A stretch of 64,000 nt of DNA from Candidatus Oleimmundimicrobium sp. (GCF_030651595.1 NZ_JAUSCH010000004.1:9380-73379), one strand, 5' to 3'. Shown: positions 2,835-21,857, counted from the stretch's first letter. The notes: generated from the letters alone by a model not told the origin. Translations and numbers: made by a program.

Positions 2835-2840
2835 TGCGTT

Positions 2841-4136
2841 TTGTCTTTGGTCGCAATTGTGGGTAGGCCAAATGTTGGAAAATCTACCATAGTTAACAGA
2901 ATAGCGTCTGGCCAACCTGCCATCGTTGATGAATTAAGTGGAGTGACAAGAGATAGAAATTACATAAAGACGGACTGGTCAGGAAAATCTTTCACTATAG
3001 TGGATACGGGTGGTCTTATTTTTGATGATAAGGAGAATCTCATTGAATCTATTCGACAGCAAGCTTTTCTTGCAGTAGAAGAGGCAGATGCGATAATTTT
3101 TGTTGTCGACGGCAAAACTGGCCTTCTTCATGACGATAAGGAGATTGCTAACATATTACGTCAAAAAACAAAACCAATTTTTCTTGTCGTGAATAAACTG
3201 GATGATATTAGCAAAGAGCTTGATAAATTTTCTTTTTATTCTTTAGGGCTTGGTGAACCACATGCAATTTCAGCCATGCATGGATTAGGTATAGGAGATT
3301 TACTGGATGAGTTGGTGAAAGTTCTTCCTCCGGAAAAAGTGGAGAAAGTTGAAGGGGTTATTAATGTTGCCATAATTGGGCGGCCAAATGCTGGGAAATC
3401 ATCTATATGTAATCGATTACTTGGGGAAGAAAGAGTAATTGTAAGTAATATTCCCGGAACAACCAGAGACACCATTGACACAGTAGTTGAACGAGGCGGA
3501 AAGAGTTATTTGTTTATTGACACAGCCGGCCTTCGTCGTCGGAAAAAAATAAAAGGGGTAGAGTATTACGGGATGGTGCGTGTTCTCAGGGCTATTGATA
3601 GGGCCGACATTGTTTTACTTGTTTTGGATTCTTCAGAGGGGGTAACCGGGCAAGATCAAAAAATTGCAGAAATAGCTAATGACAGAGATTGTGGTGTTAT
3701 GGTTTTATTAAATAAATGGGATTTGATAGATGCCGAGAATCTTAACAATCTCTATCACAGTTTGGAAAAAAAATTAAGATTTATAAGTTATGCTCCCGTT
3801 CTTAAGGTTTCCGCTCTTAAAAATAAGGGGATAAGCAAAATTTATCCAATGATAGATAAAGTTGCCAATGAGTATTTTAGACAAGTTTCAACACCCCAGC
3901 TTAATAATTTAGTTCAAGCGATAAAAACAAAAGGTCATACGGTATCCAAAGGGAGGAAAAAACTTAATTTATTATATGCGACGCAGATTAAAACAGGCCC
4001 ACCGACTTTTTTATTTTTTGTCAATGAGCCAAGCTTAATTAATGTGTATTTTAAAAGATATCTGACGTCAGAGGTTCGTAAATTCTTTTCTTTTAAAGGT
4101 GTTCCCGTGAAATTGCTTTTTAGAAAAAAGAGTTGA
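2841..4136 (+). CDS. der: ribosome-associated GTPase Der (EngA)
   Basis: Two tandem GTPase domains with P-loops GRPNVGKST and GRPNAGKSS plus C-terminal KH-like region; TTG start 10 nt after AGGAG. Confidence 0.95.
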
Positions 4137-4273
4137 TTGTCATTATAAAAAACCCGGTAGGATAAACTAAAAGCAGAGAGGATAAAGAAGATTAATTAGC
4201 GAATTTGCAACCGGCAAAATCAAACTTTCGATTGAAAAATTTTAATTTTAAAAAGAAGGGACTTAAGTTTAAC

Positions 4274-4945
4274 GTGAGTATTTTAATAAAAGCATTATTT
4301 GTTATTGGTGTAAGCTATTTAATTGGCTCAATTTCATTTGCATTGCTAATTGGGAAAGGTTTTTATGGAATAGACATAAGAGAGCAAGGAAGCGGAAATC
4401 TTGGAGCCACCAATACCTTTAGGGTATTGGGCATCACCCCGGGTATTTTGGTGCTTATATGTGATATCCTGAAGGGTGTTGTCTCGGTTGGTCTTGCAAG
4501 CTTATTCTTCAGGGACGCGCCCACTCTCTTTAATTCTTTTCTTCAGACTGGAACAAGTTTTGCGAGCTATTCGATGCTGGACTCAACGGTTATTGTAGCC
4601 GCCGGGTTTGCTGTTATTGCCGGTCATAATTGGTCTATATTTCTTAGGTTTTCAGGTGGCAAAGGGATGGCCACTACTACTGGTGTTTTACTGGTTATTG
4701 CTCCAAAAATAGTTTTTGCTTTGTTTTTAATTTGGCTTATTGTTTTTGCTTTAACAAGATATGTTTCGCTCAGTTCAGTCATAGTAGCTGCTACATTTCC
4801 GTTTTTTATGATATATTTTTATCGGGGCAATTATCCTTACATAGCATTTAGTTTAATTGATGCTGTGGTCACAATTTATAAACATAGGTCAAACATGAAA
4901 CAACTTTTAAAAGGTAAGGAGTCTAAAATTGGCAAAAAAAGTTAA
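4274..4945 (+). CDS. plsY: glycerol-3-phosphate acyltransferase PlsY
   Basis: Signature GSGNxGATN and the typical N-terminus YLIGSISFALLIGK. ORF track begins at 4205; an in-frame GTG at 4274 gives the canonical PlsY N-terminus. Confidence 0.9.
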   Translation: MSILIKALFVIGVSYLIGSISFALLIGKGFYGIDIREQGSGNLGATNTFRVLGITPGILVLICDILKGVVSVGLASLFFRDAPTLFNSFLQTGTSFASYSMLDSTVIVAAGFAVIAGHNWSIFLRFSGGKGMATTTGVLLVIAPKIVFALFLIWLIVFALTRYVSLSSVIVAATFPFFMIYFYRGNYPYIAFSLIDAVVTIYKHRSNMKQLLKGKESKIGKKS

Positions 4946-5975
4946 TTTATTCAGGTTAACGGAGAAAAAAATTGCTGTTATAGGGGCTGGGAGCTGGGGA
5001 ACAGCTATTTCAATTCTTTTAGCGAAAAAGGGTTTTGTCGTTTCATTGTGGGCAAGGGATGAAAAGTTTGCCTGTGAAGCACAATCCAAAAGAAGCAATC
5101 CACGCTATCTTCCAAATGTGATTTTTCCCGAAAATCTGGATGTATCTTTTAAAATGGACGATGTTGTAAAAGGGGCCGAAGTTATAGCGCTGGTTGTTCC
5201 ATCGCACGGGATGAGAGAGGTTGTTAAAAAGTTAAAGAGTTTTCTTAAAGATCAAATTATTATAAGTCTTGCTAAAGGGATAGAAGTTGATACTCTCATG
5301 CGTATGTCTGAAGTTATTGCTAGTGAATTGCCCGAGAAATTTTTTGAGAAGATTGCAGTTATTTCGGGTCCCAATCACGCAGAAGAAGTAAGTCTTGAAA
5401 TACCGAGCACAACAGTTGTTTCGGCACATAAAAAAGAAGTGGCCTTAAAAGTTCAAAATATGTTTATGACACCTTATTTTAGAGTTTATACCAATCCCGA
5501 TATTATTGGGGTTGAAGTTGGGGGAGCTACAAAAAATATAATTGCTTTAGCTACAGGAATGTCCGATGGATTAGGTTATGGTGATAACACCAGGGCTTCT
5601 TTAATGACGAGGGGGTTAGCTGAAATGACTCGGTTAGGGTTAAATATGGGGGCTCAATCTTCGACTTTTGCCGGTCTTTCCGGGATGGGCGATTTGATAG
5701 CCACATGCACGAGCCGTCATAGCAGAAACAGAAACACCGGAGAAAAGATTGCTAAAGGAATGACATTGGAAGAAGTTACCGCAGAAACAAAGATGGTGGC
5801 CGAAGGGACAAAAACTACCAAAGCGGTATACAGACTGGCCGAAAAGAGATGTATTGATATGCCTATTACCAGGGCTGTTTATCAGGTTTTGTATGAAAAC
5901 AAGCGTCCTCTCAATTGTGTTTCCGATTTAATGATGCGTGGGGCAAAAGATGAATTGAAAGCATTTGGCTACTGA
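4929..5975 (+). CDS. gpsA: NAD(P)H-dependent glycerol-3-phosphate dehydrogenase
   Basis: Rossmann motif IAVIGAGSWGTA and GpsA C-terminal blocks; TTG start 8 nt after AAGGAG; 17-nt overlap with plsY. Confidence 0.95.
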   Translation: MAKKVNLFRLTEKKIAVIGAGSWGTAISILLAKKGFVVSLWARDEKFACEAQSKRSNPRYLPNVIFPENLDVSFKMDDVVKGAEVIALVVPSHGMREVVKKLKSFLKDQIIISLAKGIEVDTLMRMSEVIASELPEKFFEKIAVISGPNHAEEVSLEIPSTTVVSAHKKEVALKVQNMFMTPYFRVYTNPDIIGVEVGGATKNIIALATGMSDGLGYGDNTRASLMTRGLAEMTRLGLNMGAQSSTFAGLSGMGDLIATCTSRHSRNRNTGEKIAKGMTLEEVTAETKMVAEGTKTTKAVYRLAEKRCIDMPITRAVYQVLYENKRPLNCVSDLMMRGAKDELKAFGY

Positions 5976-6209
5976 TCAATCTCGTTACATGTGAAAAAAT
6001 ACACTGTTTATCCTTTTTAAATTGTTTGTCTTTTTGTTTGCCCAAAGAATTAATTTTTTGTGGGTTATTCTGGGCTCTTAATTCGAGCATTTTCCCTCGC
6101 CCTTGATGGAGGGGAGGGTGATGAGGTTTTGCTCTTAACATTTTTAATTTTTCTATTTCGTTTTCATTTTTATTTCTTATTTTGAAATAGCTGATAGAAA
6201 ATTCGAATA

Positions 6210-6239
6210 TTGGCAAATTGAAAGACGATTAGATATAAT
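6210..6239 (+). promoter_or_regulatory. putative sigma70-type promoter (TTGGCA-18-TATAAT) for the HTH gene
   Basis: Hexamers read directly from sequence ~50 nt upstream of the 6290 ATG. Confidence 0.35.
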
Positions 6240-6264
6240 GATATATAATTATATATCATTATAT
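6233..6264. promoter_or_regulatory. perfect 32-bp palindrome (candidate operator)
   Basis: ATATAATGATATATAA|TTATATATCATTATAT is a perfect inverted repeat (16+16 bp). It overlaps the -10 element and lies just upstream of the HTH gene. Confidence 0.6.
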
Positions 6265-6289
6265 AAACTAAGTTATAGTGAGGTTTGAG

Positions 6290-6718
6290 ATGGAAAAGGA
6301 AAATAAGCTTTATACTCCAAAACAAGTAGCCGAAAAATTAAACCTTAAGCCCACAACCATTCGAGAATGGTGCAAAACAGGGAAAATAGGTCGCATTAAA
6401 TTTGGGAAAGAATACCGTATTTCAGAAAAAGATATAGAGGATTGGATTTCGAAAAGAAAAAAGCAGTTTAAGCCCGATAAAGACCTCTTAGATCGGAATT
6501 TGTTATGTATTATGCTCTATCTTAATTTAAAGGAAAAAGGCGAAAGTTATATCGCAGATTTATATCGCGCCTACAAGGAAGAAAGTACCGCGAAAAGCAT
6601 ATATTATTTAGACGATATACTTGACATATTAAATAAATATGACGAAAAGATGCCGGGATTAACTGATGATGTTTTCAAATTATTGAGAGAAAATGGATTT
6701 TTAAAAACAGAAGATTAG
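6290..6718 (+). CDS. excisionase/MerR-superfamily HTH DNA-binding protein with unknown C-terminal domain
   Basis: N-terminus YTPKQVAEKLNLKPTTIREWCKTGKIGRIKFGKEYRISEKDIEDWI matches the excisionase-family HTH pattern. ORF track starts at GTG 6278; the ATG at 6290 follows a GAGGT RBS. Confidence 0.6.
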   Translation: MEKENKLYTPKQVAEKLNLKPTTIREWCKTGKIGRIKFGKEYRISEKDIEDWISKRKKQFKPDKDLLDRNLLCIMLYLNLKEKGESYIADLYRAYKEESTAKSIYYLDDILDILNKYDEKMPGLTDDVFKLLRENGFLKTED

Positions 6719-6861
6719 GTGATATAAAAAGCATAACCTCAGTTAAGTAGATATGTTGATTGAGTTGAATAATTGCTCTCTTTGGATGGTAATCAGGATA
6801 AATTGTTACATTCATTGTGTAGGGAAATTAACTTCCGGGGAATACAATGCCTAAAATCATC

Positions 6862-6890
6862 TTGAACGAAAATAGCGGCTTAGATATAAT
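6862..6890 (+). promoter_or_regulatory. putative promoter TTGAAC-17-TATAAT for tRNA-Pro
   Basis: Consensus-like hexamers with 17-nt spacer about 50 nt upstream of the tRNA. Confidence 0.45.
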
Positions 6891-6941
6891 GAGTTCGCTG
6901 TTTTTTATTGGCTCAAAAAGGATAATGTAAACTATTGTTAT

Positions 6942-7018
6942 CGGGGCGTGGCGCAGTTTGGTAGCGCACCAGGCTGGGGGTCTGGTGGCCGCTGGTTCGA
7001 ATCCAGTCGCCCCGACCA
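6942..7018 (+). tRNA. tRNA-Pro (anticodon GGG)
   Basis: Manually folded cloverleaf. Acceptor CGGGGCG/CGCCCCG, D-stem GCGC/GCGC, anticodon stem CCAGG/TCTGG, loop CTGGGGG (anticodon GGG), T-loop TTCGAAT, encoded CCA. Confidence 0.9.
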
Positions 7019-7151
7019 AAAAAAACGGTTGATAGTAAAATCAAAAAAAACCATAATATCTACCATTTTTCTCATTTGATGATTGTTTGTCTGTTATTTC
7101 TATCGAATTTGTAAAATTTCTTTTCCTGTTTTGTTATTGTAGAATTGAAAC

Positions 7152-8049
7152 ATGATGATTGTAGAAATATTAAAAAATACATGGGTCTTCACTTTAATGG
7201 CTTTACCTTGGCTGGCAGTTGGGTATTTATTTGCCGGCTTGCTTAAAGTTTTAATTCCGGTCGGTTTTTTAGAAAAACATATTGGCAGTGGCTTTAAGTC
7301 ATTGATTTACGCTACTTTAATTGGCATCCCTTTGCCTTTATGTTCTTGTGGCGTGGATTCCCATGGCAATGACTTTAAGAAGGCGTGGGGCGAGCTTGGG
7401 AGCGACTATCTCCTTTTTAATTGCAACTCCTGTCACTACTGTAACCACGTTATTTTTGCTTTATGCTTTCTTTGGTTGTAAATTCGTGATTTTAATGGTG
7501 TTTACGGGGTTTTTTATAGCCATTCTTACAGGTCTTTTTGTAGATATTTTCGTAGATTCATCGAATGTGGAAGTTAAGAAGAGAATTAAATGCTCTCATT
7601 GTGATGTTGTCTGTGAACATAAGCGCTATTTTGGGTTTACCGAGAAGCTCAAAGAAGTTTTTAGGTACGGGTTTTTGGAGATAGGAAGAGATACATTAGG
7701 TTGGATTTTTCTTGGTTTGCTGGGTGCGGGGATAATTGCTACCCTTGCCCCTAAAGAAATAATCGGTCATTATTTAGGGACGGGATTTTTGCCGCTTATT
7801 TTAATGGTTATTATTGGCGGTCCCATGTATATTTGTTCTACTGGTAGCATTCCTTTTGTTGCGGCTCTTGTTTCAAAAGGTTTAACCGTAGGTAGTGCCG
7901 TTGTTTTTCTGATAGTCGGCCCCGCAACCAACTTGTCTACTTTTTTTGTTTTAGCCCGCAAGCTGGGCAGAAAAACGGCAGTTATCTATATTGTTTCAAT
8001 AATAATGTTTTCTTTAATCTTGGGGTATTTAATTCAATTAATAGTTTAA
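7152..8049 (+). pseudogene. DUF318/ArsP-like permease (COG0701) disrupted by a +1 frameshift
   Basis: ORFs 7152..7481 and 7321..8049 are two frames of one gene. Family motif reads PLCSCGV then DSHGN in frame 1, and ...VAWIPMAMTLRRRGASLGATISFLIATP in frame 2. Removing one G near 7355-7356 restores CSCGVIPMAM... Confidence 0.6.
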
Positions 8050-8161
8050 GGTTGAATGAGTAAAATTATTTTTTATGTATCAGTTTCGGTTTTGAATGTA
8101 TTTTTAACTACTAGTAGGATTTTTTGCTGTTTTATCGAATTAAAGTTCCTGGAGGGGCGCC

Positions 8162-9124
8162 ATGATTAAAACTTTAGTATATGTTCCAGGCGAGGGGATA
8201 AAAGAAGGTGTTCCTTTTGGAAACATAAAAGAGTTTGTAGATAAGGATAGTTGTTCTATCTGGGTAGATTTAGAGGAGCCCACAGAAGACAATTTCAAAA
8301 TCCTTGCTGACATATTTAACCTCCATCCGCTTGCTATCGAAGATGCTAAAACGAAGTTCAATCTTCCAAAAATTGATGAGCATGTGGGATATCTTTTCAT
8401 TGTATGGCATGACCTTTTAGGTTCCTCTGGTTTAGATAAAATGGAGACTGCTGAAGTTGATATCTTCTTAGGTAAAAATTTTTTTGTAACAGTTCATGAT
8501 AGAAAGATGAAAAATCTCGACTTGATTTTCGACCACTGCAAACAAGCCCCCGATTTTATGAGCAGGGGAGCAGAATGGGTTTTGCATCACCTGCTTGATG
8601 TGATGGTCGACGGAGACTTCCTTTTGGTCGATAGAATAAGCAACGAGGTTGACGAGCTTGAAGATAGAATATTTGAGGTTCCCACGCAGGAAAATCTCAA
8701 AGAGTTGTTTTTATATAAACGTCAGCTTATCACCATACGTAAAATAGCTGCTCCACAAAGGGAAATAATTAGTGTTTTGTTGAGACACGAAACTTTTATT
8801 GAGAGACATGCTTATATCTATTTTCAAGATGTTGCTGACCATTTGATAAGAATCGTCGATTCTGTTGATACAGCTAGAGATGTTATAAGTGGAGCCATGG
8901 ATATCTATTTAAGCAACGTTTCCAACAGAATGAATGAGGTAATGAAGAAGTTGACTATAGTTGCGACGATTTTTATACCGCTTACTCTAATAACCGGTAT
9001 ATATGGGATGAATTTTAAGAATATGCCTGAGTTATACTGGACGTATGGTTATTTTATTGTTTTGATTGTTATGGTGTCTTTTGTTTTTGGAGTATTCATT
9101 TATTTTAAATCTAAACGGTGGTGA
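8162..9124 (+). CDS. corA: magnesium/cobalt transporter CorA
   Basis: YGMNF (GMN) motif before two C-terminal TM helices; 320 aa. Confidence 0.9.
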   Translation: MIKTLVYVPGEGIKEGVPFGNIKEFVDKDSCSIWVDLEEPTEDNFKILADIFNLHPLAIEDAKTKFNLPKIDEHVGYLFIVWHDLLGSSGLDKMETAEVDIFLGKNFFVTVHDRKMKNLDLIFDHCKQAPDFMSRGAEWVLHHLLDVMVDGDFLLVDRISNEVDELEDRIFEVPTQENLKELFLYKRQLITIRKIAAPQREIISVLLRHETFIERHAYIYFQDVADHLIRIVDSVDTARDVISGAMDIYLSNVSNRMNEVMKKLTIVATIFIPLTLITGIYGMNFKNMPELYWTYGYFIVLIVMVSFVFGVFIYFKSKRW

Positions 9125-9131
9125 TGATTTC

Positions 9132-9644
9132 TTGGGAATTGCGAATATCTTGACGATTATCCGATTAATTTTAATTCCCTTCTTTATCTATTTTTTTCTT
9201 TTAGGTTATAATTATATTGCTCTATTTCTGTTTACCCTGGCTGCGCTCACCGATTGGCTAGATGGTTATTTAGCGAGGGCTTTTTCTCAAGTAACTAGTT
9301 TCGGGAAATTTATCGATCCTCTTTCGGATCGCTTATTAATTATAAGTACCTTGGTTGTGTTAGTGGTAAAGGATTTCTTACCTTTACTTGCCGTGATTAT
9401 AGTAATTTCGAGAGATTTATTTACAATGATTGGTTATCAGTATATGCAATGGCGCGACAAAGAGGTGCCTGTAACTTACCTTGGAAAAACTGCAACTGCA
9501 ATCTTGATGAGCTCGATAATTTTAATAATAGCCGGTGTAAATTTTGGGGTTTTGCTTTTTTACTTTGGAGTTTTTCTATCTGTTGCGTCATTTATAGATT
9601 ACGTTCGAAGAGCAACTTTCGTGTTGAAGTATGAGGAGAGGTGA
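9132..9644 (+). CDS. pgsA: CDP-diacylglycerol--glycerol-3-phosphate 3-phosphatidyltransferase
   Basis: CDP-alcohol phosphatidyltransferase motif DWLDGYLAR...G...D...SD. ORF track start 9066 overlaps corA; the TTG at 9132 just after the corA stop is more likely. Confidence 0.85.
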
Positions 9645-9648
9645 TTTT

Positions 9649-12147
9649 TTGAAAGCAGTAGTTATGGCAGGAGGCGAAGGTACAAGGCTTAGGCCGATTA
9701 CAAGTAATCATCCAAAGCCCATGGTGCACATAGCAAATAAACCGATCATGGAACACATCATCGAGCACCTTAAAAAACACAAGATCACAGACATTGTAGC
9801 CACTCTACAATTTCTTCCAAGTGTTATTAAAAGTTATTTTGCCGAAGGGGAAGAGCTCGGTGTAAATTTAAGTTATGCAATAGAAGATGTTCCTCTTGGA
9901 ACGGCTGGCAGCGTAAAAAATGCTGAGGATTACTTAGATGATACATTCATTGTAATAAGCGGAGACGCATTAACTGATATTGATTTAACAAAAGTTGTTA
10001 ATTTCCATAAAAAAAACAAATCGATGGCTACCATAGCTTTAAAAAAAGTGGAAAATCCCTTGGAGTTTGGAATTGTGATAACTAATAAAAAAGGGCGTGT
10101 CGAGCGGTTTTTAGAAAAACCCTCATGGGGCGAGGTTTTTAGCGATACCATTAATACCGGAATTTATGTTTTAGAACCAGAAATATTTAAGTATATTCCC
10201 GAAGGTAAACCGTTTGATTTCAGTAAAGACCTTTTCCCCTATCTTTTAAAGAATGGGTTTCCGCTATACGGTTTTGTTGTCGATGATTATTGGTGTGATA
10301 TAGGGAACATTAAACAATACATCGAGGCCCAGCGAGACGTGTTAGACGGTAAAGTAAATATAAATATGCCCGGAATTAAGATGGGGGATAATATATGGAT
10401 TGGCGAGGGAGCTTCAATCGGTCCCAATGCAAAAATTTTAGGTCCGGCGATAATAGGCCATGACTCAATGATTGAGAATGACGCGGTTATAGGCAGGTAT
10501 TCTGTTATTGGGAACAATGCCATTGTTAGAGAAAAAGCTAAAATTTATAGAGCCATTGTTGGAGAAAATTCTTATATTGGTTCAAATGCTATTCTTAACG
10601 GATGTATTGTTGGAAGAAACTGCGATGTCAAGAAATCGGTTCGGTTGGAACAAGGAGTGGTTTTGGGTGATGATTGCCGTGTTGAAGATAGCGCTGTTAT
10701 CAATCCTGATGTAAAAATTTACCCTTTTAAAGTAATAGACGGGGGAGCTACCATTAACCGAAGTATTATTTGGGAATCTAAAGGGACTCGCACCCTTTTC
10801 GGCCGCAATGGTGTTTCAGGAATAATTAACATAGATGTTACTCCGGATACGGCTGCGCGGTTAGCTATGGCTTATGGGACTTCGTTAAAAAAAGGGTCTT
10901 ATGTTGCGGTAAGTAGAGATTCAAACCGGGCTTCACGAATGATTAAAAGGGCGATAGTTGCCGGTCTTGGTTCTGCGGGAATTCATTGTCAGGATTTGAG
11001 GATGTCTCCAACTCCAATAAATAGATTTGCAATTCGCTCTATGCGATGTGCTGGAGGAATTCACGTTCATATTTCACATTTTGACCCCCAATTAATTGAA
11101 ATTATATTTTTTGATTCAAACGGAATTAATCTTTCTAAAGGTGAACAGAGAAAAATCGAACGTTATTTTTACCGAGAAGATTTTAGGCGTGCTTTTCATA
11201 ACGAAATAGGAGAAACTTCATTTCCAACACTTACTTATGAGTACTATGCCAATGCACTATTAAAAAAGATAAATAAGACCGAAATAAGAAAGAAAAAGTT
11301 TAGAATTATAATAGATTATTCATATGGGAATTCTGTTCTGGTATTGCCCCAGCTAATTGGGAAGTTAGAATGTGAGGTAATTTCTTTAAACGCATTCACA
11401 GATGAGGATAAATCAACTTTGAGCATTAGAGAGTTCGGGCAATCACTTGAACAATTAGGCAGAACCGTTAATACATTTAAGGCCGATTTAGGTGTTTTAA
11501 TTGATGCCACATGTGAAAGATTGCTTATGATAGACGAAAAGGGAAACAGGATTAGCTATGACTCGTTATTGCTTTTACTTATTGATTTAGTATCTCGATT
11601 TGGGCAAAAAGGTAAAATAGCAGTACCGATTACTGTACCAAGTGCCGCTGAGAAAATTGCCGAGAAAAATAGGCGAAAAATTTTAAGAACCAAGCTAAGC
11701 GCAACTGATTTGATGACTACCGCCTTAAGAAAAGATGTTGTTTTTGCTGGAGCGCAAGGCGGACGTTTTATTTTTCCGCGATTTCTTCCAGCGTATGATG
11801 CGATGCAATCTCTTTGTTTGTCGCTTGAATATTTAGCAAAAGCAAAGACTCCGATTTCCAAATTAATAGAAGGTTTACCGAAATATCATCTTGCACAAAA
11901 AAATACGTTTTGTGCTTGGGAAAACAAAGGTTTGGTTATGCGTAGCTTGTTAGAAAAAACTAAAGGCAAAAAAATTGACTTAACTGATGGTATCAAAATT
12001 TTTGAAGATGACTATTGGGTACTTGTGATTCCCGATCCGGAAGAACCAGTTTGCAGAGTTTATTGTGAAGCCGAGTCAGATGAGGAAGCAATGGCCCAGG
12101 TAGATAAATATTTGAGCTTAATCAGCAAAATTATTTGCACACAATAA
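9649..12147 (+). CDS. sugar-phosphate nucleotidyltransferase (GDP-mannose pyrophosphorylase-like) fused to left-handed beta-helix and phosphomannomutase-like domain
   Basis: N-terminus [15 protein letters not shown] (NTP-transferase), central hexapeptide-repeat region, C-terminal PGM/PMM-like domains. Mutase motifs are degenerate: HISHFDP where TASHNP is expected, and DATCER where DGDGDR is expected. TTG 9649 follows a GAGGAGAGGTGA RBS. Confidence 0.8.
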
Positions 12148-12156
12148 GGAGGAAAC

Positions 12157-13569
12157 ATGCGGGACACTATAAAATTTGGGACCGATGGTTGGCGAGCTAT
12201 CATGTGCGATAGCTTTATCTTTAAAAATGTAAGAATAGTGACTCAGGCGATAGCCAATTATCTCCATAATTGTGGTTTATCCGAAAAAGGGGTGGTTATC
12301 GGTTACGATAATCGTTTTTGTTCTGAAGATTTTGCCGATGTTTGTGCTTCGGTCTTAATCGGAAACAAAATTCCTGTTTTTTTAATTAAAGACTCAACAC
12401 CGACACCTGTCACTGCATGCTCTATAAATTTTTTTAAGGCCGCGGGGGCAATTATGTTAACGGCTAGTCATAATCCAGCAAAATATAATGGCCTTAAGTT
12501 TGTTCCAGAATATGCCGGTCCAGCCACTTCGGAAATAACTTCGCAGATAGAGAAAGAAATAAACTTGATTTTTAAAAATAAAAAAGTATTTTTTGATGAC
12601 ACCAAAGGTAATGATTTGCTGCATGTTATCGACCCGGTTGATAGATATTTAGAGCACTTAAAGGGTCTAATTAATTTTGAAGTAATTCGAGAAGCCAAAT
12701 TGAAAATTGCTTTTGATCCCATGTATGGTTCGGGCCAGGTTGTGATGAAAAAAGTGCTTGAAGAAGCAGGTTGTGAGGTCTATCCAATTAATGATTATCG
12801 TGATGTGCTTTTTGGCGGCAGATTACCCGAGCCGTCTTTAGAAAACTTAAGCGAACTTCAGTCTTTAGTTTTAAGCAAAAAAGCTGACCTTGGTTTGGCG
12901 TTAGACGGAGACGCGGATAGGTTTGGCACAATTGACAATAAGGGGTATTTTCTTTCATCAAATCAAGGCCTCTCGGTTTTATGTTCATACTTACTTGGGG
13001 ATCGTAAATCAGACGGTAAGGTGGTTAGAACCATATCAACCACTCATTTACTTGATAAAATTGCGGCAAAATTTGGTGTAAAGTTTGAAGAAACTCCTGT
13101 TGGTTTTAAATATATTGGTCAGATAATGCTAAAAGAACCAGTAGTTATAGGAGGGGAAGAAAGCGGTGGTTTGAGTATATTGGGGCATGTGCCTGAAAAA
13201 GATGGAATATTGGCCGGCCTGTTGTTTTGTGAGGTTACCGCTAATAAAAATGAATCCTTATCGAATTTACTCGATGAAATTTATTCAGAATATGGACATT
13301 TTTATAATTACCGCTTAGACATTCATTGTTCACAAGACAAAAAAACAAAATTGTTGCGCGATTTGAAAAACAACCCCCCTTCTTCGATAAGTGGTTTGAA
13401 AGTTAACGAGGTTCTATTGAAAGATGGTGTTAAGTTTCTACTTGAGGGGGACAGTTGGATTTTAATAAGGCCATCAGGCACGGAACCCCTCGTTAGGATT
13501 TATATGGAAAGTTGTTCTACAAAGACCCTCGAGAATCTTCGTCAATACGCGGAAACTCTTCTTAATTAA
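12157..13569 (+). CDS. phosphomannomutase/phosphoglucomutase
   Basis: Canonical motifs TASHNP, DGDADR and GGEESGG all present; 470 aa. Confidence 0.85.
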   Translation: MRDTIKFGTDGWRAIMCDSFIFKNVRIVTQAIANYLHNCGLSEKGVVIGYDNRFCSEDFADVCASVLIGNKIPVFLIKDSTPTPVTACSINFFKAAGAIMLTASHNPAKYNGLKFVPEYAGPATSEITSQIEKEINLIFKNKKVFFDDTKGNDLLHVIDPVDRYLEHLKGLINFEVIREAKLKIAFDPMYGSGQVVMKKVLEEAGCEVYPINDYRDVLFGGRLPEPSLENLSELQSLVLSKKADLGLALDGDADRFGTIDNKGYFLSSNQGLSVLCSYLLGDRKSDGKVVRTISTTHLLDKIAAKFGVKFEETPVGFKYIGQIMLKEPVVIGGEESGGLSILGHVPEKDGILAGLLFCEVTANKNESLSNLLDEIYSEYGHFYNYRLDIHCSQDKKTKLLRDLKNNPPSSISGLKVNEVLLKDGVKFLLEGDSWILIRPSGTEPLVRIYMESCSTKTLENLRQYAETLLN

Positions 13570-13683
13570 AACAGTATTCCTCAAAATCTCTTTAGTAAGG
13601 AGCTATTATATCTTTTTACAATAGGGTTTTTATTGGTTATACTTACTTATTTATTAAATTAAAATTTTATTGAAGGTAAGATT

Positions 13684-14412
13684 ATGCAATTTACAAAATG
13701 GCGCATTTCTCTAATGGTTGGATTTATAGTTTTAGGGATACTTCTTGCAACCTCTTTCTATTCACAACAAAAGTTTAAGGAAACCGGTCCATCATCTAGA
13801 AAAGAGGGGCTTATGGAATCAGTTGAAGCACTGGAAGTAGAACGCGAACGATTAAAGAATGAGTTGTCAAAAACGCGTAAAGAAGTAGAAGATTACGAGA
13901 AGCAAGCCGCTGCCAACGAGGGCATTCTTACGTCTTTTACCCAAGAAAATGAAGAATTAAAAAAAGCGGCCGGATTAACTTATTTGACGGGGACCGGGGT
14001 GGAGATAACTCTTGCGGATAGTTCACAACTTCCTGAGTTTGAAAATCCCAATAACTATATTATCCATGATTATGATTTACGTCTAGCCGTTAACGCGTTA
14101 TTAAGCGGTGAAGCGCGGGGAATTGACGTAAACGGTCAAAGACTCATTTCTACCAGTGCCATTAGGTGTGCGGGAAATACGGTTATGATTAATTCCACTC
14201 GACTCTCGTCTCCCTACAAAATTAAGGCAATTGGGGAACAAGACAGATTACTTAAAGCTCTTCAAGAAGATGAAGGTTTCGCGCAGCTTTTGCAAAGTTA
14301 CGCAAAAGCTTTTGGTTTAATTGTCAAGGTTGATAAAATTTCTGAATTAAGATTACCGTCTTACAAAGGAAGTTTGCATCTTGAATATGCTGAATCTGTG
14401 GGGGAAAAGTAA
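13684..14412 (+). CDS. DUF881 (YlxW/YlxX-like) division/cell-wall cluster protein
   Basis: N-terminal TM helix, coiled-coil and C-terminal DUF881-like region; paired with a second copy flanking an Sbp-like gene. Confidence 0.7.
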   Translation: MQFTKWRISLMVGFIVLGILLATSFYSQQKFKETGPSSRKEGLMESVEALEVERERLKNELSKTRKEVEDYEKQAAANEGILTSFTQENEELKKAAGLTYLTGTGVEITLADSSQLPEFENPNNYIIHDYDLRLAVNALLSGEARGIDVNGQRLISTSAIRCAGNTVMINSTRLSSPYKIKAIGEQDRLLKALQEDEGFAQLLQSYAKAFGLIVKVDKISELRLPSYKGSLHLEYAESVGEK

Positions 14413-14759
14413 TGTTGCCATTAATTGGTTTGTTGATAGGGGTAGCACTTGGTTTAATTTTAAAAATTCCTGTGCCGCCTTCTTATGCCAAATATTTAGG
14501 AGTAGCGACCTTAGCTGCCTTAGATAGCGCGTTTGGCGGAATTAGGGCTAGCTTGGAAAAAGAGTTCAATGACAAACTGTTTATTTCGGGCTTCTTTAGT
14601 AATACCATTCTTGCGGCTTTTATTGTGTATATGGGAGATCGTTTAGGCGTTGAACCTCTTTATTACGCCGCTATCGTAGCTTTCGGTGTTCGCTTGTTTC
14701 AAAATATTGCGGTAATCAGACGTATTATTTTTGAAAGAAAGTATTGGGGACAAGAATGA
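14412..14759 (+). CDS. sbp: small basic membrane protein Sbp (DUF1290)
   Basis: 115-aa membrane protein between two DUF881 genes, the conserved DUF881-sbp-DUF881 arrangement. Confidence 0.6.
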   Translation: MLPLIGLLIGVALGLILKIPVPPSYAKYLGVATLAALDSAFGGIRASLEKEFNDKLFISGFFSNTILAAFIVYMGDRLGVEPLYYAAIVAFGVRLFQNIAVIRRIIFERKYWGQE

Positions 14760-15451
14760 AAGATATTTTTCATGTTTATAATGTTTATGATCGTTTACAG
14801 ACGAAAAGGATGCAGGTTGCTATAGCAGTTATTTTTGCTATCATTGGCATGCTTTTGGTGACCCAGCTTCAAATTCAAAGTGGTATCTCTAAAAAATTGC
14901 AGCAAGAATCTAAACAAGACCTGGGTGAAATTATTAGAGATTTGGATATAGAAGTAAGAGCATTGCAGGAAGAGAGAAGAGATTTAGAAATAAGACTTGT
15001 TAAATATCAGAACGCAACCGAAGACCAGCAATTAATTTTAAATGAAGCAGCTCATAATCTGGAGAATTTAAAGATATTTGCCGGGCTAATAGGGGTTAAA
15101 GGTGAGGGTGTTGAGGTGGTAATCGAAGACAAACAACAATTTTTAGACTGTTATGATCTTATAGATGTTGTCAATGAACTTAAAGCGGGAGGGGCTGAAG
15201 TTCTTTCAATAAACGGAATACGTATTACGGCTAATACAAGTTTTGCTAATGAATCAGGAGGTCAAATTGTTATTGATAAAAAGAAAGTTAGCCCCTCTTT
15301 TATTATTAAAGCAATAGGAAATTCAGAAACGCTTTCTCAGGCCGTTGGTTTATTAGGTGGGATTCAGTATACTTTGACTTCCTACGAAGGGGTGACTTTT
15401 GAGGTTGCAAGGATGGAGAGTTTAGAAATACCGCCAACCGATTTTAATTAA
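14756..15451 (+). CDS. DUF881 protein (second copy)
   Basis: Same architecture as 13684..14412. ORF track starts at 14744; the ATG at 14756 (MKDIFHV) is more likely. Confidence 0.7.
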   Translation: MKDIFHVYNVYDRLQTKRMQVAIAVIFAIIGMLLVTQLQIQSGISKKLQQESKQDLGEIIRDLDIEVRALQEERRDLEIRLVKYQNATEDQQLILNEAAHNLENLKIFAGLIGVKGEGVEVVIEDKQQFLDCYDLIDVVNELKAGGAEVLSINGIRITANTSFANESGGQIVIDKKKVSPSFIIKAIGNSETLSQAVGLLGGIQYTLTSYEGVTFEVARMESLEIPPTDFN

Positions 15452-15453
15452 AT

Positions 15454-17304
15454 ATGGATATATTAAAAGCAATTAAGTTATTTAAAATTAAAAACTTTTT
15501 TAAAGCCAACAAGAAAACCATTGTAGTTTTGGCGGCTTCAATTATAATGCTTGTGGCTTTGCCAACTTTGGCAGATGCTGTTATTCATTACGGTAAAATT
15601 CACCATGGCATAAAAATAAATGGCATCAACGTCGGTTATCTAACTCCTCAAGAATCCCAAAAAAAGGTTTCTCAAGAGATGGAGCATGTCTTAAGTAAAT
15701 CCGTTATTGTTCAGCACGAAAACATGGAGTGGAAATTAACGCCCACCGACATTAAAACAAACTTAAATGTTGCAAAAAGTGTCGAAAAAGCCTACAACGT
15801 CGGAAGGAAGGGAGGTTTTATCTCTTGCTTTAAGATAAGATTTTTAACTTGGTTTTCGCCAATTGAATCCCCGCTTATTTGTTACACGGATAGTCGACTC
15901 ATAAATTCTTTTATTAATAATATCGCTAAAGAGGTTGATAAAGAGCCGAGGGACGCGGGTTTAGAGATTAATGGAACAGATATTGAAGTTATAAAAAGTC
16001 AAATTGGAATAAAAGTAAAAAAGACAGATTTATTTTCTCAAATTAAAGATAAGGTTGTTTCACTTGAGAACAGGAAAATTAATCTTCCCACAAGTATTTC
16101 CCCGGCCGTTGTTGCTGATGATGGCGTTGAGCAGGCCAAGGCGGATCTTGTTAAGATGCTTCAAGCTTCTCTAATCTTAAAATATTCGGATAAGCGCTGG
16201 GAAGTTGGGCCTGAAAAAATAGGGGAGCTTGTTGCATTCAACAAGACAGATGAATTTTTTAATGAGAGGAAAAAAGTTGTTCTTAAAGCAGCTTTAGATA
16301 AAGAGAAAGTTGAGTCATACATAAAAGAAGTTACCCAGGATATTAGCAAAAAAGCAGAAGACGCAAAATTTGAAATAATTGGTAAGAAAGTAAAGATTAT
16401 TCCGAGTGTTGATGGGAATAAAATCGATACGGCTGTTGCATATTTAGAAATTGAGAAAGTTATAAAAAGTAATCCACCCCGTGAAATAATTTTAAAGATG
16501 AAAACAGTAAAACCAGATCTTGCTACCGAAGAAGCTCAAGCGATGGGGATTAAAGAACGAGTGAGTGTTTTTAAAACTTATTATAGTGCAGGCAATGCTC
16601 CGCGAGTGAATAATATTCATTTGCTTGCTGGGACCTTAGATGAAATGCTTGTTGCTCCAGGGGAGATTTTTTCATTTAATGAATTTGTGGGGCCACGGAC
16701 AACCGAAAAAGGTTATCAAGAAGCGGGAACCATAATAAACGGTGAGGTGGTTCCTACTATAGGCGGAGGGGTTTGCCAGGTTGGGACAACTATATTTAAT
16801 ACAGCATTTTTTGGTGGATATCCAATTATAGAGAGAAGCAATCATAGCTTTTATATAAGCAAATACCCAACCGGAAGAGATGCAACTGTATCCTATGGCG
16901 GTCCGGACTTTAGATTTAAAAATGATACCTCTGCCCATATTTTAATTAAAACTTCTTATTCAAATTCCTCTGTAACTGTTTCTTTTTACAGTACGGGTTT
17001 TGGGATTAATGTATCGTATGATACTTCTCAATTTTCAAATATAGTTTCATGCCCTATTGAATATGTTGAAGATTCAACTATTAATAAAGGAGAACAGAAA
17101 ATTGAGGAACAAGGAATTAATGGTTTTGATGTGACCGTATACAGAACTGTTACGAAAAATGGTGAGACAATACGGAAAGATAAATTTTTTAGCCGTTATA
17201 AACCCAAAAAAGCAGTCATTTTAATTGGGACAAAGGACAATTTTGAGCAAGAAGAAGATGGTGCAGTTCCAAAAGATTATGAGGAAACCACTTCAACAGC
17301 TTAA
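15454..17304 (+). CDS. VanW family protein with N-terminal peptidoglycan-binding/G5-like domains
   Basis: C-terminal VanW block GGGVCQVGTTIFNTAFFGGYPIIERSNHSFYISKYPTGRDATV; signal/TM N-terminus. Confidence 0.85.
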   Translation: MDILKAIKLFKIKNFFKANKKTIVVLAASIIMLVALPTLADAVIHYGKIHHGIKINGINVGYLTPQESQKKVSQEMEHVLSKSVIVQHENMEWKLTPTDIKTNLNVAKSVEKAYNVGRKGGFISCFKIRFLTWFSPIESPLICYTDSRLINSFINNIAKEVDKEPRDAGLEINGTDIEVIKSQIGIKVKKTDLFSQIKDKVVSLENRKINLPTSISPAVVADDGVEQAKADLVKMLQASLILKYSDKRWEVGPEKIGELVAFNKTDEFFNERKKVVLKAALDKEKVESYIKEVTQDISKKAEDAKFEIIGKKVKIIPSVDGNKIDTAVAYLEIEKVIKSNPPREIILKMKTVKPDLATEEAQAMGIKERVSVFKTYYSAGNAPRVNNIHLLAGTLDEMLVAPGEIFSFNEFVGPRTTEKGYQEAGTIINGEVVPTIGGGVCQVGTTIFNTAFFGGYPIIERSNHSFYISKYPTGRDATVSYGGPDFRFKNDTSAHILIKTSYSNSSVTVSFYSTGFGINVSYDTSQFSNIVSCPIEYVEDSTINKGEQKIEEQGINGFDVTVYRTVTKNGETIRKDKFFSRYKPKKAVILIGTKDNFEQEEDGAVPKDYEETTSTA

Positions 17305-17437
17305 TTTTTAAGAGGAAATTTGTAATTTAAAACAAGGAACTTAAATGAGTTGAGCCGAAGATGATTGAAAGAGGCGCGGGCAAATCAAAAGAGTTATTAA
17401 TAAATGAAAAGTTTAATTCAATACAAGGAGCAAAAGG

Positions 17438-17869
17438 GTGAAAGCGAAACAAATTTCGGTTTTTCTTGAAAATAAGTGGGGGAGACTTGCCGAAGCAACA
17501 AAAGTTTTGGGAGATAACGATATTAATATTCGCGCTTTAAGTGTTGCCGATACTGCTGATTATGGCGTACTAAGAATGATTGTCAATAAACCAGACAAAG
17601 CTTATACAGCTCTTAAAGATAAAGGATTTATTGCAACCAAAACAAACGTGTTTGGAATAAAGATTTCCGATAAGCCAGGTAGTTTAGCAGGGATTCTTGA
17701 GGAATTAAAGAAAAAAAGTTTAAATGTAGAATATATATATAGTTTTTCAGAAAAGAGTCATGATTCTGCTATCCTTATTTTGCGGGTTGAAGATATTGAT
17801 GAAGCGATTAAAACACTACAATCAGCGGGTGTAAAAGTTATTAGAGCTAAGGAATTATACACGCTTTAA
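17438..17869 (+). CDS. ACT domain-containing protein (two ACT repeats)
   Basis: Two ~70-aa repeats with ACT-like pattern (ISVFLENKWGRL... / IKISDKPGSLAGIL...). Confidence 0.7.
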   Translation: MKAKQISVFLENKWGRLAEATKVLGDNDINIRALSVADTADYGVLRMIVNKPDKAYTALKDKGFIATKTNVFGIKISDKPGSLAGILEELKKKSLNVEYIYSFSEKSHDSAILILRVEDIDEAIKTLQSAGVKVIRAKELYTL

Positions 17870-17895
17870 ATAAAATTATTTTTAGGAGGAGAAAG

Positions 17896-18315
17896 ATGGT
17901 TGTAGGTAGAGAAATTTGTTTTTTAACTAAAGGGAATGTAGATATTGTTGATTTAACGCAACAGATAGAAACAGTCGTCAAAGAAAGTGGTATATCAAAC
18001 GGAATGGTGAATATTTTTGTTCCGGGTGCAACGGGTTCGATAACTACCATAGAATGCGAAGCTGGTTTGTTGGATGATTTTAAAAATATCATTGAAGAAT
18101 TAATTCCTCAAAATCATCACTACTATAAACACAACAATGATTTAGGCGGACAAAACGCCCACTCTCATTTAAGGGCATCACTGCTGGGTCCTTCACTCAC
18201 GGTGCCAATTGTAGATAAAGAGTTAACTTTAGGAGCATGGCAGCAAATAATTTTTATAGACTTTGATGACCAGCCAAGAAACAGGTGTCTTAAGCTTCAA
18301 CTAATAGGTGAATAG
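17896..18315 (+). CDS. YjbQ/UPF0047 family (secondary thiamine-phosphate synthase-like) protein
   Basis: Characteristic GSITTIECEAG...NAHSHLRASLLG...GAWQQIIFIDFD pattern. Confidence 0.8.
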   Translation: MVVGREICFLTKGNVDIVDLTQQIETVVKESGISNGMVNIFVPGATGSITTIECEAGLLDDFKNIIEELIPQNHHYYKHNNDLGGQNAHSHLRASLLGPSLTVPIVDKELTLGAWQQIIFIDFDDQPRNRCLKLQLIGE

Positions 18316-18349
18316 GAAGCATATAATTTTAAATAAATTAGGAGATTTG

Positions 18350-18574
18350 TTGAAAAAAATAGCTTCAATTGACCGATTTGAAAAAGATGTTGCAGTTCTT
18401 CTTTTTGAGGGAGTTGAAGGGTCCTATGAATTTCCCAGAAAAATATTGCCACCTGAGTGTAACGAAGGAGACATTATAATAGTAGAAATTGCTCTTAAAG
18501 AAAACGAGTCAAAGAAAAGGTTAAAAAAATCACTTAATTTAATTAAGAGATTAACAAATCATAATGAAGAGTAA
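18350..18574 (+). CDS. DUF3006 family small protein
   Basis: IDRFEKDVAVLLFEG...EGDIIIVEI matches the DUF3006 pattern; the TTG at 18350 after GGAG is more likely than the ORF-track ATG at 18308. Confidence 0.55.
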   Translation: MKKIASIDRFEKDVAVLLFEGVEGSYEFPRKILPPECNEGDIIIVEIALKENESKKRLKKSLNLIKRLTNHNEE

Positions 18575-19736
18575 AAAATGCAAGTTTTTAACATTTATCA
18601 AATTTACTGCAGTTATCTTCCTAGCGTTTATTGTTTCTCTTTCTCAGCCATGGCCGGTTTTAGCAAGCGTTGACCCTCTGCAAACTAGCGCTTCTTCAGG
18701 ATTATTAATGGATGCAGAAACAGGACGAGTTCTTTGGGAAAAAGAACCGAATATTAAGCGTTCCGTGGCAAGCACAACCAAGATGATGACGGGTATTGTC
18801 ACCATCGAAAACGCTTCCTTTGATGAAATTATTACAATCAGCTCTTTGGCCGCAGATGTTGGTGAGGCGGAGATTTATCTTTCTCCTGGCGAAAAGAGAT
18901 CCGTTGAAGATCTTTTGTACGGAGTGCTTTTAAAATCGGGTAACGATGCTGCGGCTGCTTTAGCTGAGCATGTTGGAGGAAGCGTCGAAGATTTTGTGAA
19001 AATGATGAACGAAAAGGCCAATAAATTAGGGACAAAAAATACTCACTTTATGAACCCGACAGGCCTAGAACAAGATGGACATTATTCATCGGCCTATGAT
19101 CTTGCGTTAATAGCAAGATATTGCCTGCAAAATGAGAAATTTGCGGAAATTGTATCAACAGAAAAGCACACCATTCCTTGGCCAGATAATCCTTATCCTC
19201 GTGTTTTAACGAATCATAATAAGCTTGTTTTAGAATATGATTACATTAAAGGTGTTAAGACTGGATACACCAAAAAAGCAGGTTATTGTCTCGTAGCTTT
19301 GGCTACGAAGGATGGTAAAAAAGTAATTTCTGTAGTTTTAAATGCACCGACAAGCGAAGACTGTTATACAGATTCCAAGAAAATTTTAGATTATGGACTC
19401 AACGAGTTTGAAATGAGAAAAATTGTGAGAAAGGGAGAATCGGTTGAGTTAATACCGCTTATTGTATGGAAAGATAGATTAAACTTAGTTGCGGATAAAG
19501 ATTTTTATTTACTGACCAAAAAAGAACATCCTGAATTAATTAAAATCATTTCAGTTAAATACCCGAAACTTCCTGTTTCTAAAGGTCAAAAGATTGGAGA
19601 AATACAAATTTTTGATGAACAGCAAGAATTAGGCAAGGTTAGCCTACTGGCTGATAAAAATATTTTCAAAAGTGGTTTTTTAGAGCAATTTCTCGACCAC
19701 ATACAGTCTTTTTTTGAAATTTTATGGAAAAAATAA
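18564..19736 (+). CDS. D-alanyl-D-alanine carboxypeptidase (PBP5-type serine peptidase)
   Basis: SxxK (ASTTKMMT), SGN (KSGNDAA) and KTG (KTGYT) motifs; signal peptide. Confidence 0.85.
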   Translation: MKSKKCKFLTFIKFTAVIFLAFIVSLSQPWPVLASVDPLQTSASSGLLMDAETGRVLWEKEPNIKRSVASTTKMMTGIVTIENASFDEIITISSLAADVGEAEIYLSPGEKRSVEDLLYGVLLKSGNDAAAALAEHVGGSVEDFVKMMNEKANKLGTKNTHFMNPTGLEQDGHYSSAYDLALIARYCLQNEKFAEIVSTEKHTIPWPDNPYPRVLTNHNKLVLEYDYIKGVKTGYTKKAGYCLVALATKDGKKVISVVLNAPTSEDCYTDSKKILDYGLNEFEMRKIVRKGESVELIPLIVWKDRLNLVADKDFYLLTKKEHPELIKIISVKYPKLPVSKGQKIGEIQIFDEQQELGKVSLLADKNIFKSGFLEQFLDHIQSFFEILWKK

Positions 19737-19797
19737 GAAGTAGTTTTTTATAATAAGAAAAATGATATATACTTAGATATAAAGAGAGGTGAGATAG

Positions 19798-20061: not shown

Positions 20062-20092
20062 GATAAAGAAAAAGTTGAGTGAGGAGGTTTTT

Positions 20093-20317: not shown

Positions 20318-20339
20318 GTAAAAAAGATGAATATTAAGC

Positions 20340-20639: not shown

Positions 20640-20643
20640 AAAA

Positions 20644-21105: not shown

Positions 21106-21123
21106 TTGGAAGGTGATGATGAA

Positions 21124-21837: not shown

Positions 21838-21857
21838 GTTAAAATTTCTCTAAAAAC

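Follow-up and report, generated by a model that had tools for sequence, protein, structure and literature searches.

In a stretch of 64,000 nucleotides (nt) from Candidatus Oleimmundimicrobium sp. (GCF_030651595.1, NZ_JAUSCH010000004.1:9380-73379), all of which was analysed and is here called the window, one gene at 9649..12147 (+) joins a sugar-1-phosphate nucleotidylyltransferase, a left-handed β-helix (LbH) and a half resembling phosphoglucomutase (PGM) and phosphomannomutase (PMM), here termed a pseudo-phosphohexomutase. In itself the fusion gene is a typical representative of a catalogued family, ‘mannose-1-phosphate guanylyltransferase/phosphomannomutase’, to which the SCO1388 type of Streptomyces also belongs. 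Its mutase-like half keeps the fold of the active enzymes and appears, from its sequence, to have lost their catalytic loops, and the ‘bifunctional’ label that the databases give to the family is probably half wrong. A gene for a membrane phosphatidyltransferase precedes the fusion and one for a complete, stand-alone mutase follows it.

The open reading frame (ORF) listed for the window starts at ATG 9631, ends at 12147 (+) and gives 838 amino acids (aa), and TTG 9649, in frame six codons after that ATG, gives 832. The TTG is the likelier start since the three closest homologs are 832 aa long, the family consensus begins MKAV.MAGG, and the purine-rich GAGGAGAGGTGA lies 4-15 nt 5' of it. An initial annotation of this DNA had an 838-aa protein beginning at 9649: the ORF is real and the mismatch of length and start trivial. 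Residue numbers for the fusion and its domains count from the ATG throughout. The three-part architecture that the same annotation described is recovered by Pfam as NTP_transferase, Hexapep/LbH and PGM_PMM domains. The NTP_transferase catalytic domain (9652..10344 (+), residues 8-238, E 9e-58) has its signature motifs intact, FLEKPS included; the hexapeptide repeats of the left-handed β-helix (10390..10740 (+), residues 254-370) are of the GMPPB_C/eIF2B-epsilon LbH type, with Pfam matches to Hexapep, LbH_EIF2B and GMPPB_C; and the remainder (10792..12144 (+), residues 388-838) is the pseudo-mutase, of the four-domain α-D-phosphohexomutase fold, in which Pfam recognizes PGM_PMM_I (residues 388-519, E 2e-28), PGM_PMM_II (538-638) and PGM_PMM_III (644-751) and has no match to PGM_PMM_IV.

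The C-terminal half was aligned residue by residue to solved active mutases by phmmer against all PDB chains. It matches the PGM of T. kodakarensis (9du5; E 1.6e-69, 238 bits) and the PMM/PGM of P. horikoshii (1wqa; E 1.5e-64) end to end, at 32-33% identity and with no gaps near the motifs. HISHFDP (11068..11088 (+), residues 480-486), called a degenerate phosphoserine loop in the initial annotation, falls exactly on TASHNPP: the pair Ser482-His483 remains, the flanking Thr-Ala is changed and the Asn has become Phe. Its companion DATCER (11503..11520 (+), residues 625-630) falls just as exactly on the metal loop DGDADR, with the middle Asp lost and the third turned to Glu. No GEESGG loop had been visible, and what stands in the place of the sugar-binding GEENGG/GEESGG is GAQGGR (11749..11766 (+), residues 707-712; AGAQGGR aligned on GGEENGG), from which both Glu have gone. 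To these can be added a fourth degenerate loop, beyond the motifs listed originally, in which the phosphate-binding RASGTEP/RPSGTEP is represented by IPDPEEP (12028..12048 (+), residues 800-806) and its Arg, Ser and Thr by Ile, Asp and Glu. The position of the GxRG (GVRG) arginine is taken by Ser396, and that of the catalytic lysine of NGxK (NGIK in the solved mutases) by Ile492. The window protein is left with Ser482-His483, Asp625, Glu629 and Arg630, without the other metal, sugar and distal-phosphate ligands, and the phosphoserine, metal, sugar and phosphate loops that characterize an active α-D-phosphohexomutase are all wanting. An intact catalytic Ser and Asp triad lying elsewhere, which would have overturned this account, was not seen: phmmer, MAFFT and Foldseek all put the degenerate strings on the canonical loops, ruling out an intact site elsewhere in the C-terminal half, and in 108 fusion sequences regular expressions picked out no Ser loop or Asp triad that was intact at another site.

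An AlphaFold model of the fusion protein, built on 40 diverse homologs, has a mean predicted local distance difference test (pLDDT) score of 85, mostly >90 over residues 390-838 and low (47-60) in the LbH region. Foldseek places it on chain A of 9du5 with a template modelling (TM) score of 0.90 and a root-mean-square deviation of 2.7 Å over 451 columns and all four domains. Since pLDDT exceeds 90 there and the superposition extends over those 451 columns, domain IV is, in the model, structurally present though missed by Pfam, and domains I-II-III-IV of the superfamily follow one another in order in the fused half.

Is the loss of the loops a peculiarity of this one gene, as might have been supposed from the initial annotation? 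It is not, and that view has to be corrected: thousands of catalogued database proteins belong to the same family. Four sets were read. The first consists of 120 near homologs with identities of 51-86%. The second comes from a full HMMER scan with the C-terminal half, which covered 1.8 billion cluster representatives and gave 750 proteins at E ≤ 1e-30; its best 150 were read for motifs and contain 81 full-length and 27 partial fusions. The third is 80 species-level actinobacterial genomes, and the fourth the members from outside the Actinomycetota. Among those best 150 of the 750, more than one canonical motif was found in 0 of the 81 full-length and 0 of the 27 partial fusions; four stand-alone proteins of 456-460 aa from the same HMMER list each have all four. 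The full-length fusion occurs in Actinomycetota, Bathyarchaeota, Thermoprotei, Helarchaeota and Armatimonadota. Near homologs share the loop signature [HD]-[VI]-R-x-S-P-F-D-P-Q, D-[SN]-A-G-E-[KR], GAQGGG and LPDP[E/D]EP; the last is also the predominant form of the phosphate loop among the 80 actinobacterial species, and D-x-x-G-E-[KR] is the family consensus for the metal loop. The position of Ser482 is Ser in 103/120 near homologs, 48/81 diverse fusions and 34/80 actinobacterial species (and Ala in 23/80 of the latter), that of residue 629 is Glu in 117/120, 64/81 and 77/80 respectively, and the His and Asn of the Ser loop are nearly never retained. In distant members the sugar loop is variable and often deleted, and the GxRG Arg and NGxK Lys are degenerate too in every diverse fusion examined. 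Degeneracy of the mutase motifs is, on this comparison of sequences, a trait of the whole family. A few fusions keep a single loop: P0125, P0175 and P0217 (archaeal or unclassified) have DxDxDR or GEExGG with the Ser loop absent, the loops being DGDADR, DEDGDR or GEDSGG/GEETGG in P0125/P0270, P0175 (Thermoprotei) and P0202/P0217 (Helarchaeota). Such one-loop members suggest stepwise loss from an ancestral active fusion, and P0125/P0270, P0175 and P0202/P0217 may show stages that the mutase domain passed through as it was inactivated.

The lost loops have been accompanied by other, newly conserved residues. Mean pairwise identity is 54% in the N-terminal domain versus 30-41% in the mutase-like domains, which points to the transferase half being under the stronger constraint. 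Several residues of the mutase-like half are nevertheless conserved in the fusions and different in real mutases, among them R465 (89%; Gln in mutases), R771 (94%) and G767 (94%), and further E629 (79%), D802 (75%), R436, R440, R515 and R520. The half itself, about 450 residues long, has its full length in thousands of proteins from both bacterial and archaeal phyla, and no deletion of a whole mutase-like domain was seen among complete proteins. Because of this persistence across domains of life, together with the fusion-specific conserved residues, purifying selection for a new, non-catalytic role is indicated.

For the N-terminal half the indications are of competence. The nucleotidyltransferase signature loop occupies residues 8-22, and the marks of PF00483 are all there: the G-x-G-x-R-L-x-P loop, the catalytic Asp of (I/V)SGD, the Lys of (F/V)EKP and the Asp of W.D.G (as WCDIG). 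GGxGTRLRP, VISGD and FLEKP are invariant in the 120 near homologs, as are G14, G15, G17, R19, P22, K29, D112, E162, K163, P164 and D223 in 40 diverse fusions. The initial annotation of a GDP-mannose/glucose-1-phosphate transferase is in this sense sound as regards the nucleotidyltransferase, with its GDP-mannose part left unsecured: against the NCBIfam model for the Rv3264c type of GDP-mannose pyrophosphorylase (NF052502) the protein reaches 267 bits where 440 is the cut-off, and the N-terminal half gives 173 bits against GMPPB. Its best match among solved structures is 8x7s (E 2e-71, 245 bits), tlr0611, deposited as a UTP-glucose-1-phosphate uridylyltransferase. This looks like an enzyme of the CugP type, distinct from GalU and likewise equipped with an LbH domain; that type has been described, with tlr0611 not mentioned (PMC13506006), and a literature search found no papers for the structures 8x7s and 7whr.

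The GDP-mannose label is doubtful because the fusion sits in glycogen gene clusters outside the Actinomycetota. In 4 of the 7 non-actinobacterial lineages examined it lies beside glycogen genes (loci L083/L084, protein P0170, of Armatimonadota; L089, P0141; L091, P0270; and L093, P0237), the neighbours being a GlgA-type GT5/GT1 synthase, GH57, glycogen phosphorylase, a CBM48-amylase, a debranching enzyme and a GalT-like DUF4921 protein. There the fusion seems to fill the place of GlgC, and this context, from which glucose-1-phosphate would be the substrate in those lineages, suggests a nucleoside diphosphate (NDP)-glucose pyrophosphorylase with a dead PGM domain. A glycogen setting was considered for the window too and rejected, there being no homologs of GlgA, GH57, GlgP or amylase in its 64 kb, and none of these was found within 7 kb of the fusion in 80 actinobacterial loci. 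A 2024 review of prokaryotic α-glucan enzymes does not mention the fusion. One variant, P0122 (935 aa, locus L092), has an extra C-terminal DUF5752 domain, and a faint match to DUF5752 is also present on the GH57 protein of locus L091. For the actinobacterial branch, SCO1388, with a nucleotidyl-transferase domain and a phosphomannomutase (ManB)-like domain, was termed bifunctional by Howlett et al. from its domains alone, and its disruption in S. coelicolor gave no GDP-mannose-related phenotype (PMC5982138).

Nine nt after the stop of the fusion gene, with its own AGGAGG Shine-Dalgarno sequence 6 nt 5' of its ATG, begins the gene for a canonical phosphohexomutase of PGM/PMM type (12157..13569 (+), 470 aa). 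Its translation holds LTASHNPAKYNGLK (the TASHNP loop), LDGDADR and GGEESGG, the three motifs already noted in the initial annotation, and RPSGTEP as a fourth, so that all four loops are intact, and Pfam finds PGM_PMM I-IV; it is below every NCBIfam equivalog cut-off, the best being Arch_GlmM with 311 of 439 bits. The two mutase sequences are of different subgroups. Derivation of the fused domain from its neighbour by recent duplication can be dismissed, the identity between them being 25% (89 bits) versus 32-33% (238 bits) with the Thermococcus PGM. Adjacency of fusion and PMM is kept in deep-branching relatives (L001 and L085-L088), down to 54% identity and including Ca. Aquicultor, where the gene order is CorA, phosphatidyltransferase, fusion, PGM/PMM, DUF881, DUF1290, DUF881, VanW. 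Among the 80 actinobacterial species loci it is found in one (L001, the nearest relative), and no adjacent PMM was found in the other phyla examined; as a universal partner the PMM is thereby ruled out. The proposal that the neighbour supplies the activity is plausible for this organism, the pair being kept in the deep-branching clade, but since adjacency is missing in 79/80 loci and in other phyla the neighbour cannot explain why the dead domain is kept.

The general conserved partner of the fusion is instead on its other side, and had no place in the initial annotation. It is a CDP-alcohol phosphatidyltransferase (9066..9644 (+); Pfam CDP-OH_P_transf, E 3e-34), a PgsA/ClsA-like membrane enzyme in which the motif D-x2-DG-x2-AR-x8-G-x3-D-x3-D of PF01066 can be read. 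Its stop, TGA 9642-9644, precedes TTG 9649 of the fusion by 4 nt and, if the fusion is instead taken from its ATG, falls 14 nt within that ORF. From the TTG at which its own ORF is listed to begin, the gene overlaps the end of a CorA gene (8162..9124) by 59 nt; homologs have lengths of 167-186 aa, which makes a true start downstream of that TTG probable. CorA also precedes the phosphatidyltransferase-fusion pair in L061, L066, L086 and L087. The window enzyme narrowly passes the NCBIfam pgsA cut-off (118.9 bits against 109.1) and is below that for the ClsA model (102 against 240), and the upstream copy of Streptomyces passes the ClsA (cardiolipin synthase) equivalog (301 against 240). A homolog lies directly upstream of the fusion on the same strand in 78/80 actinobacterial loci, with a median of 0 nt between its stop codon and the first codon of the fusion; the two overlap or abut in most, and in about 20 there is the 4-nt overlap typical of translational coupling. 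In L024:6311-9487 (Aquihabitans daechungensis DSM 27986, 1058 aa) and in L074 they form a single in-frame ORF, and the database protein P0395 (1054 aa) has PF01066 plus the domains of the fusion, the order of parts in these ORFs being membrane enzyme, transferase, LbH and pseudo-mutase.

Downstream of the stand-alone mutase the window has a string DUF881 - DUF1290 - DUF881 - VanW/PG_binding_4/G5 (13684..17304), probably with a role in the cell envelope or division. The same string, with VanW, comes after the fusion in deep-branching relatives, and DUF881, a small membrane protein homologous to DUF1290 and a second DUF881 follow it in Streptomyces and several other Actinomycetota. At 20644..21837 are a zinc-ribbon/FHA protein and then a MerR-family regulator, and the whole region of the fusion looks like a conserved actinobacterial core cluster because many actinobacterial loci likewise have MerR and FHA genes downstream of the fusion; the downstream genes of high-GC loci were taken by longest ORF, a noisy procedure giving spurious antisense ORFs, and were used only for MerR, FHA and VanW. 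Elsewhere in the window phospholipid and fatty-acid genes are scattered: an acyltransferase (25..648), PlsY (4205..4945), GpsA (4929..5975), a FakA-like gene (32411..33997), PlsX (39621..40610) and FabF (47782..49020). A tRNA-Pro(GGG) gene is at 6942..7018, and an ORF for an ArsP_1-type permease at 7321..8049 covers positions 68-293 of the 294 of its profile and is maybe N-terminally truncated or starts further upstream. Across 1..64000 the + strand carries nearly all genes, GC skew is uniformly positive (0.13-0.3) and GC content is 31-41%; a scan for promoters and terminators gave counts at chance level. The genomes closest to the window are of uncultured deep-branching Actinomycetota (Ca. 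Subteraquimicrobium, Ca. Solincola and Ca. Aquicultor).

How does the fusion compare with known systems? With SCO1388 the likeness is one of published domain layout and not of sequence alignment; the Streptomyces fusions of L072, L078 and L080, from other species and assumed to be orthologs of SCO1388, share 43-44% identity with the window protein. As in the window, their loci have a phosphatidyltransferase upstream, of ClsA type, and DUF881-DUF1290-DUF881 downstream; unlike the window lineage, the sampled Streptomyces loci are without a real mutase directly downstream. A literature search found no description of the dead mutase domain, Howlett 2018 on SCO1388 being all that it brought up. CDD labels the C-terminal half a PGM-like domain of ‘MPG1 transferase’. 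As a bifunctional ManC/ManB the fusion seems not to qualify, its transferase half being competent by its motifs and its mutase half departing from all four of the mutase motifs. The archaeal-type enzymes 9du5 and 1wqa, the closest active relatives of the C-terminal half, have in common with it FF.EDF.R and other non-catalytic motifs, and carry TASHNPP, DGDADR, GEENGG and RASGTEP, of which the fused domain has none. The layout of NTP-transferase plus non-catalytic LbH, and the signature motifs, are those of tlr0611 (8x7s), Rv3264c (NF052502), GMPPB and VTC1, none of which has the mutase-like C-terminal extension.

Three precedents are pertinent to a non-catalytic use of such a domain. GMPPA is a catalytically inactive paralog that regulates GMPPB, and structures of it (7d72-7d74) are among the structural matches of the fusion. 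There too an NDP-hexose pyrophosphorylase, belonging to the same family, has a pseudo-enzyme as its partner, though GMPPA is a separate subunit and a dead copy of the pyrophosphorylase, whereas the dead module of the fusion is a covalently joined copy of the preceding enzyme of the pathway. PGM5 (aciculin) is a vertebrate paralog of phosphoglucomutase that is inactive and plays a structural part, and GlmM binds and regulates the cyclase CdaA; 6y8z and 7olh/7ojs/9g69 are among the Foldseek fold matches of the model. Both illustrate non-catalytic or protein-binding use of the phosphohexomutase fold of the kind proposed here, but they are stand-alone proteins of unrelated pathways and lineages and GlmM, unlike the fused domain, is still an active enzyme. 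For the upstream partner the comparison is with IPCT/DIPPS (inositol-1-phosphate cytidylyltransferase joined to CDP-alcohol phosphotransferase), the same pairing of enzymes, which is realized here by adjacency and in frame in L024, L074 and P0395. The order of the parts is reversed relative to the in-frame fusions, and the NCBIfam IPCT/DIPPS model gives only 18 bits on the window phosphatidyltransferase. From the 2009 work of Sandoval-Calderón et al., ClsA is said to use CDP-diacylglycerol and to need no NDP-sugar.

The reading that we favour, and consider likely, is of an active sugar-1-phosphate nucleotidylyltransferase with a retained pseudo-mutase as an assembly or regulatory module. The N-terminal domain, an NDP-hexose pyrophosphorylase, would be the only catalytic centre. 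The C-terminal half would descend from an archaeal-type PGM/PMM, having kept the four-domain fold while losing the residues for phosphoryl transfer and phosphosugar binding, and would no longer interconvert hexose-6-phosphate and hexose-1-phosphate. Its retention would be for a non-catalytic purpose, most likely assembly or regulation, with the domain organizing a complex, either a homo-oligomer or one that includes the upstream membrane CDP-alcohol phosphatidyltransferase, and its remodelled cleft could bind a ligand. In this organism the separate canonical mutase, whose gene begins 9 nt further on, would supply the hexose-1-phosphate. We infer that mutase activity is absent from the fused half, and likewise infer what the pseudo-mutase domain does, which sugar (glucose or mannose) and which nucleotide are used, and any contacts with the neighbouring proteins. 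Some points weigh against this interpretation. The retained Ser482-His483, Asp625, Glu629 and Arg630 make weak or altered phosphoryl chemistry conceivable; those few archaeal members with DxDxDR or GEExGG mean that loss may be incomplete somewhere; the assembly or regulatory role is proposed by analogy with GMPPA, PGM5 and GlmM-CdaA and from gene order; and the in-frame ORFs with the phosphatidyltransferase are rare and could be due to sequencing or assembly error in single genomes, as in close relatives of the Aquihabitans gene (73-93% identity) the fusion is annotated as a separate protein of 828 aa.

Several other roles can be envisaged for the domain. The first is a narrower form of the favoured reading and not a rival to it: the dead cleft could be an allosteric sensor, binding a metabolite such as a hexose phosphate or nucleotide sugar and tuning the pyrophosphorylase, in the manner of GMPPA acting on GMPPB and of the regulatory sites of GlgC. 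Six fusion-specific arginines (R436, R440, R465, R515, R520 and R771), the position of non-actinobacterial fusions among glycogen genes where the allosterically controlled GlgC is normally found, and the GMPPA/GMPPB complexes among the structural matches of the N-terminal half all make this version possible, but it is tempered into a doubtful one by the acidic turn of the phosphate loop (LPDPEEP), which is against phosphosugar binding in the ancestral style. Rather less probable is a docking scaffold, the form given here to the idea in the initial annotation that the neighbour supplies activity, in which the pseudo-mutase pairs with the neighbouring PGM/PMM through the oligomer interface of the archaeal-type enzymes and channels hexose-1-phosphate. 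The adjacency of the two genes in Ca. Aquicultor and four other deep-branching lineages, the 9-nt spacer and separate Shine-Dalgarno sequence seen here, and the deposition of the closest solved relatives, 9du5 and 1wqa, with four chains each would suit such pairing; it is rendered unlikely by the retention of the dead domain in the 79/80 actinobacterial loci and other phyla where the PMM is not adjacent, and by the two proteins being 25% identical and of different mutase subgroups. More speculative again, and in our estimation improbable, is that the dead domain is a coupling device tethering or gating the NDP-hexose pyrophosphorylase at the membrane phosphatidyltransferase, the pair being in Actinomycetota a hitherto unrecognized two-enzyme system that makes a hexose-phosphate lipid head group (IPCT/DIPPS-like) or coordinates cardiolipin synthesis with the supply of envelope sugar nucleotides, and the domain being elsewhere the regulatory part of a non-GlgC glycogen pyrophosphorylase.

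Two further explanations were considered. Were Ser482 phosphorylated, with Asp625 and Glu629 holding the metal, the enzyme would be an atypical mutase and truly bifunctional, and the residues that the window protein retains, Ser in 103/120 near homologs and the fully kept fold could be cited to that effect. Across the family, however, the Ser is dispensable (34/80, with Ala in 23/80) and its His and Asn hardly ever survive; also gone are the middle Asp, the two Glu of the sugar loop, the phosphate-loop Arg, Ser and Thr, the arginine of GxRG and the lysine of NGxK; a complete canonical mutase is encoded next door; and the knock-out of SCO1388 had no phenotype (PMC5982138), all of which makes an active mutase very unlikely. 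The initial annotation had offered pseudo-enzyme or scaffold and atypical mutase as alternatives, and with four loops degenerate here and across the diverse fusions examined it is the pseudo-enzyme that is best supported. The opposite extreme, a functionless relic tolerated as the leftover of a once bifunctional enzyme, would account for the faster evolution of the mutase-like domains (30-41% versus 54% mean identity) and for the frequent deletion of the sugar loop in distant members. It is hardly credible for some 450 residues that thousands of proteins, from bacterial and archaeal phyla, maintain in full, with a predicted fold of very high confidence, new residues conserved at 75-94% and no whole-domain deletions among complete proteins.

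Thousands of genes, including one in Streptomyces and in most sampled Actinomycetota, are annotated as bifunctional GDP-mannose pyrophosphorylase/phosphomannomutase, and a dead mutase half would make any metabolic reconstruction in which the fusion counts as a PMM or PGM wrong. The case would add a bacterial and archaeal example to the few pseudo-enzymes that have arisen from the enzyme one step earlier in their own pathway, and bears on how the supply of sugar nucleotides is regulated or localized. The interest is in the probably wrong ‘bifunctional’ label together with the conserved and unexplained partnership of the dead domain. In one phylum the fusion shows translational coupling to an enzyme of cardiolipin-synthase type, in others it lies within glycogen clusters, and a pseudo-enzyme of 450 residues kept from archaea to actinomycetes must have some role.

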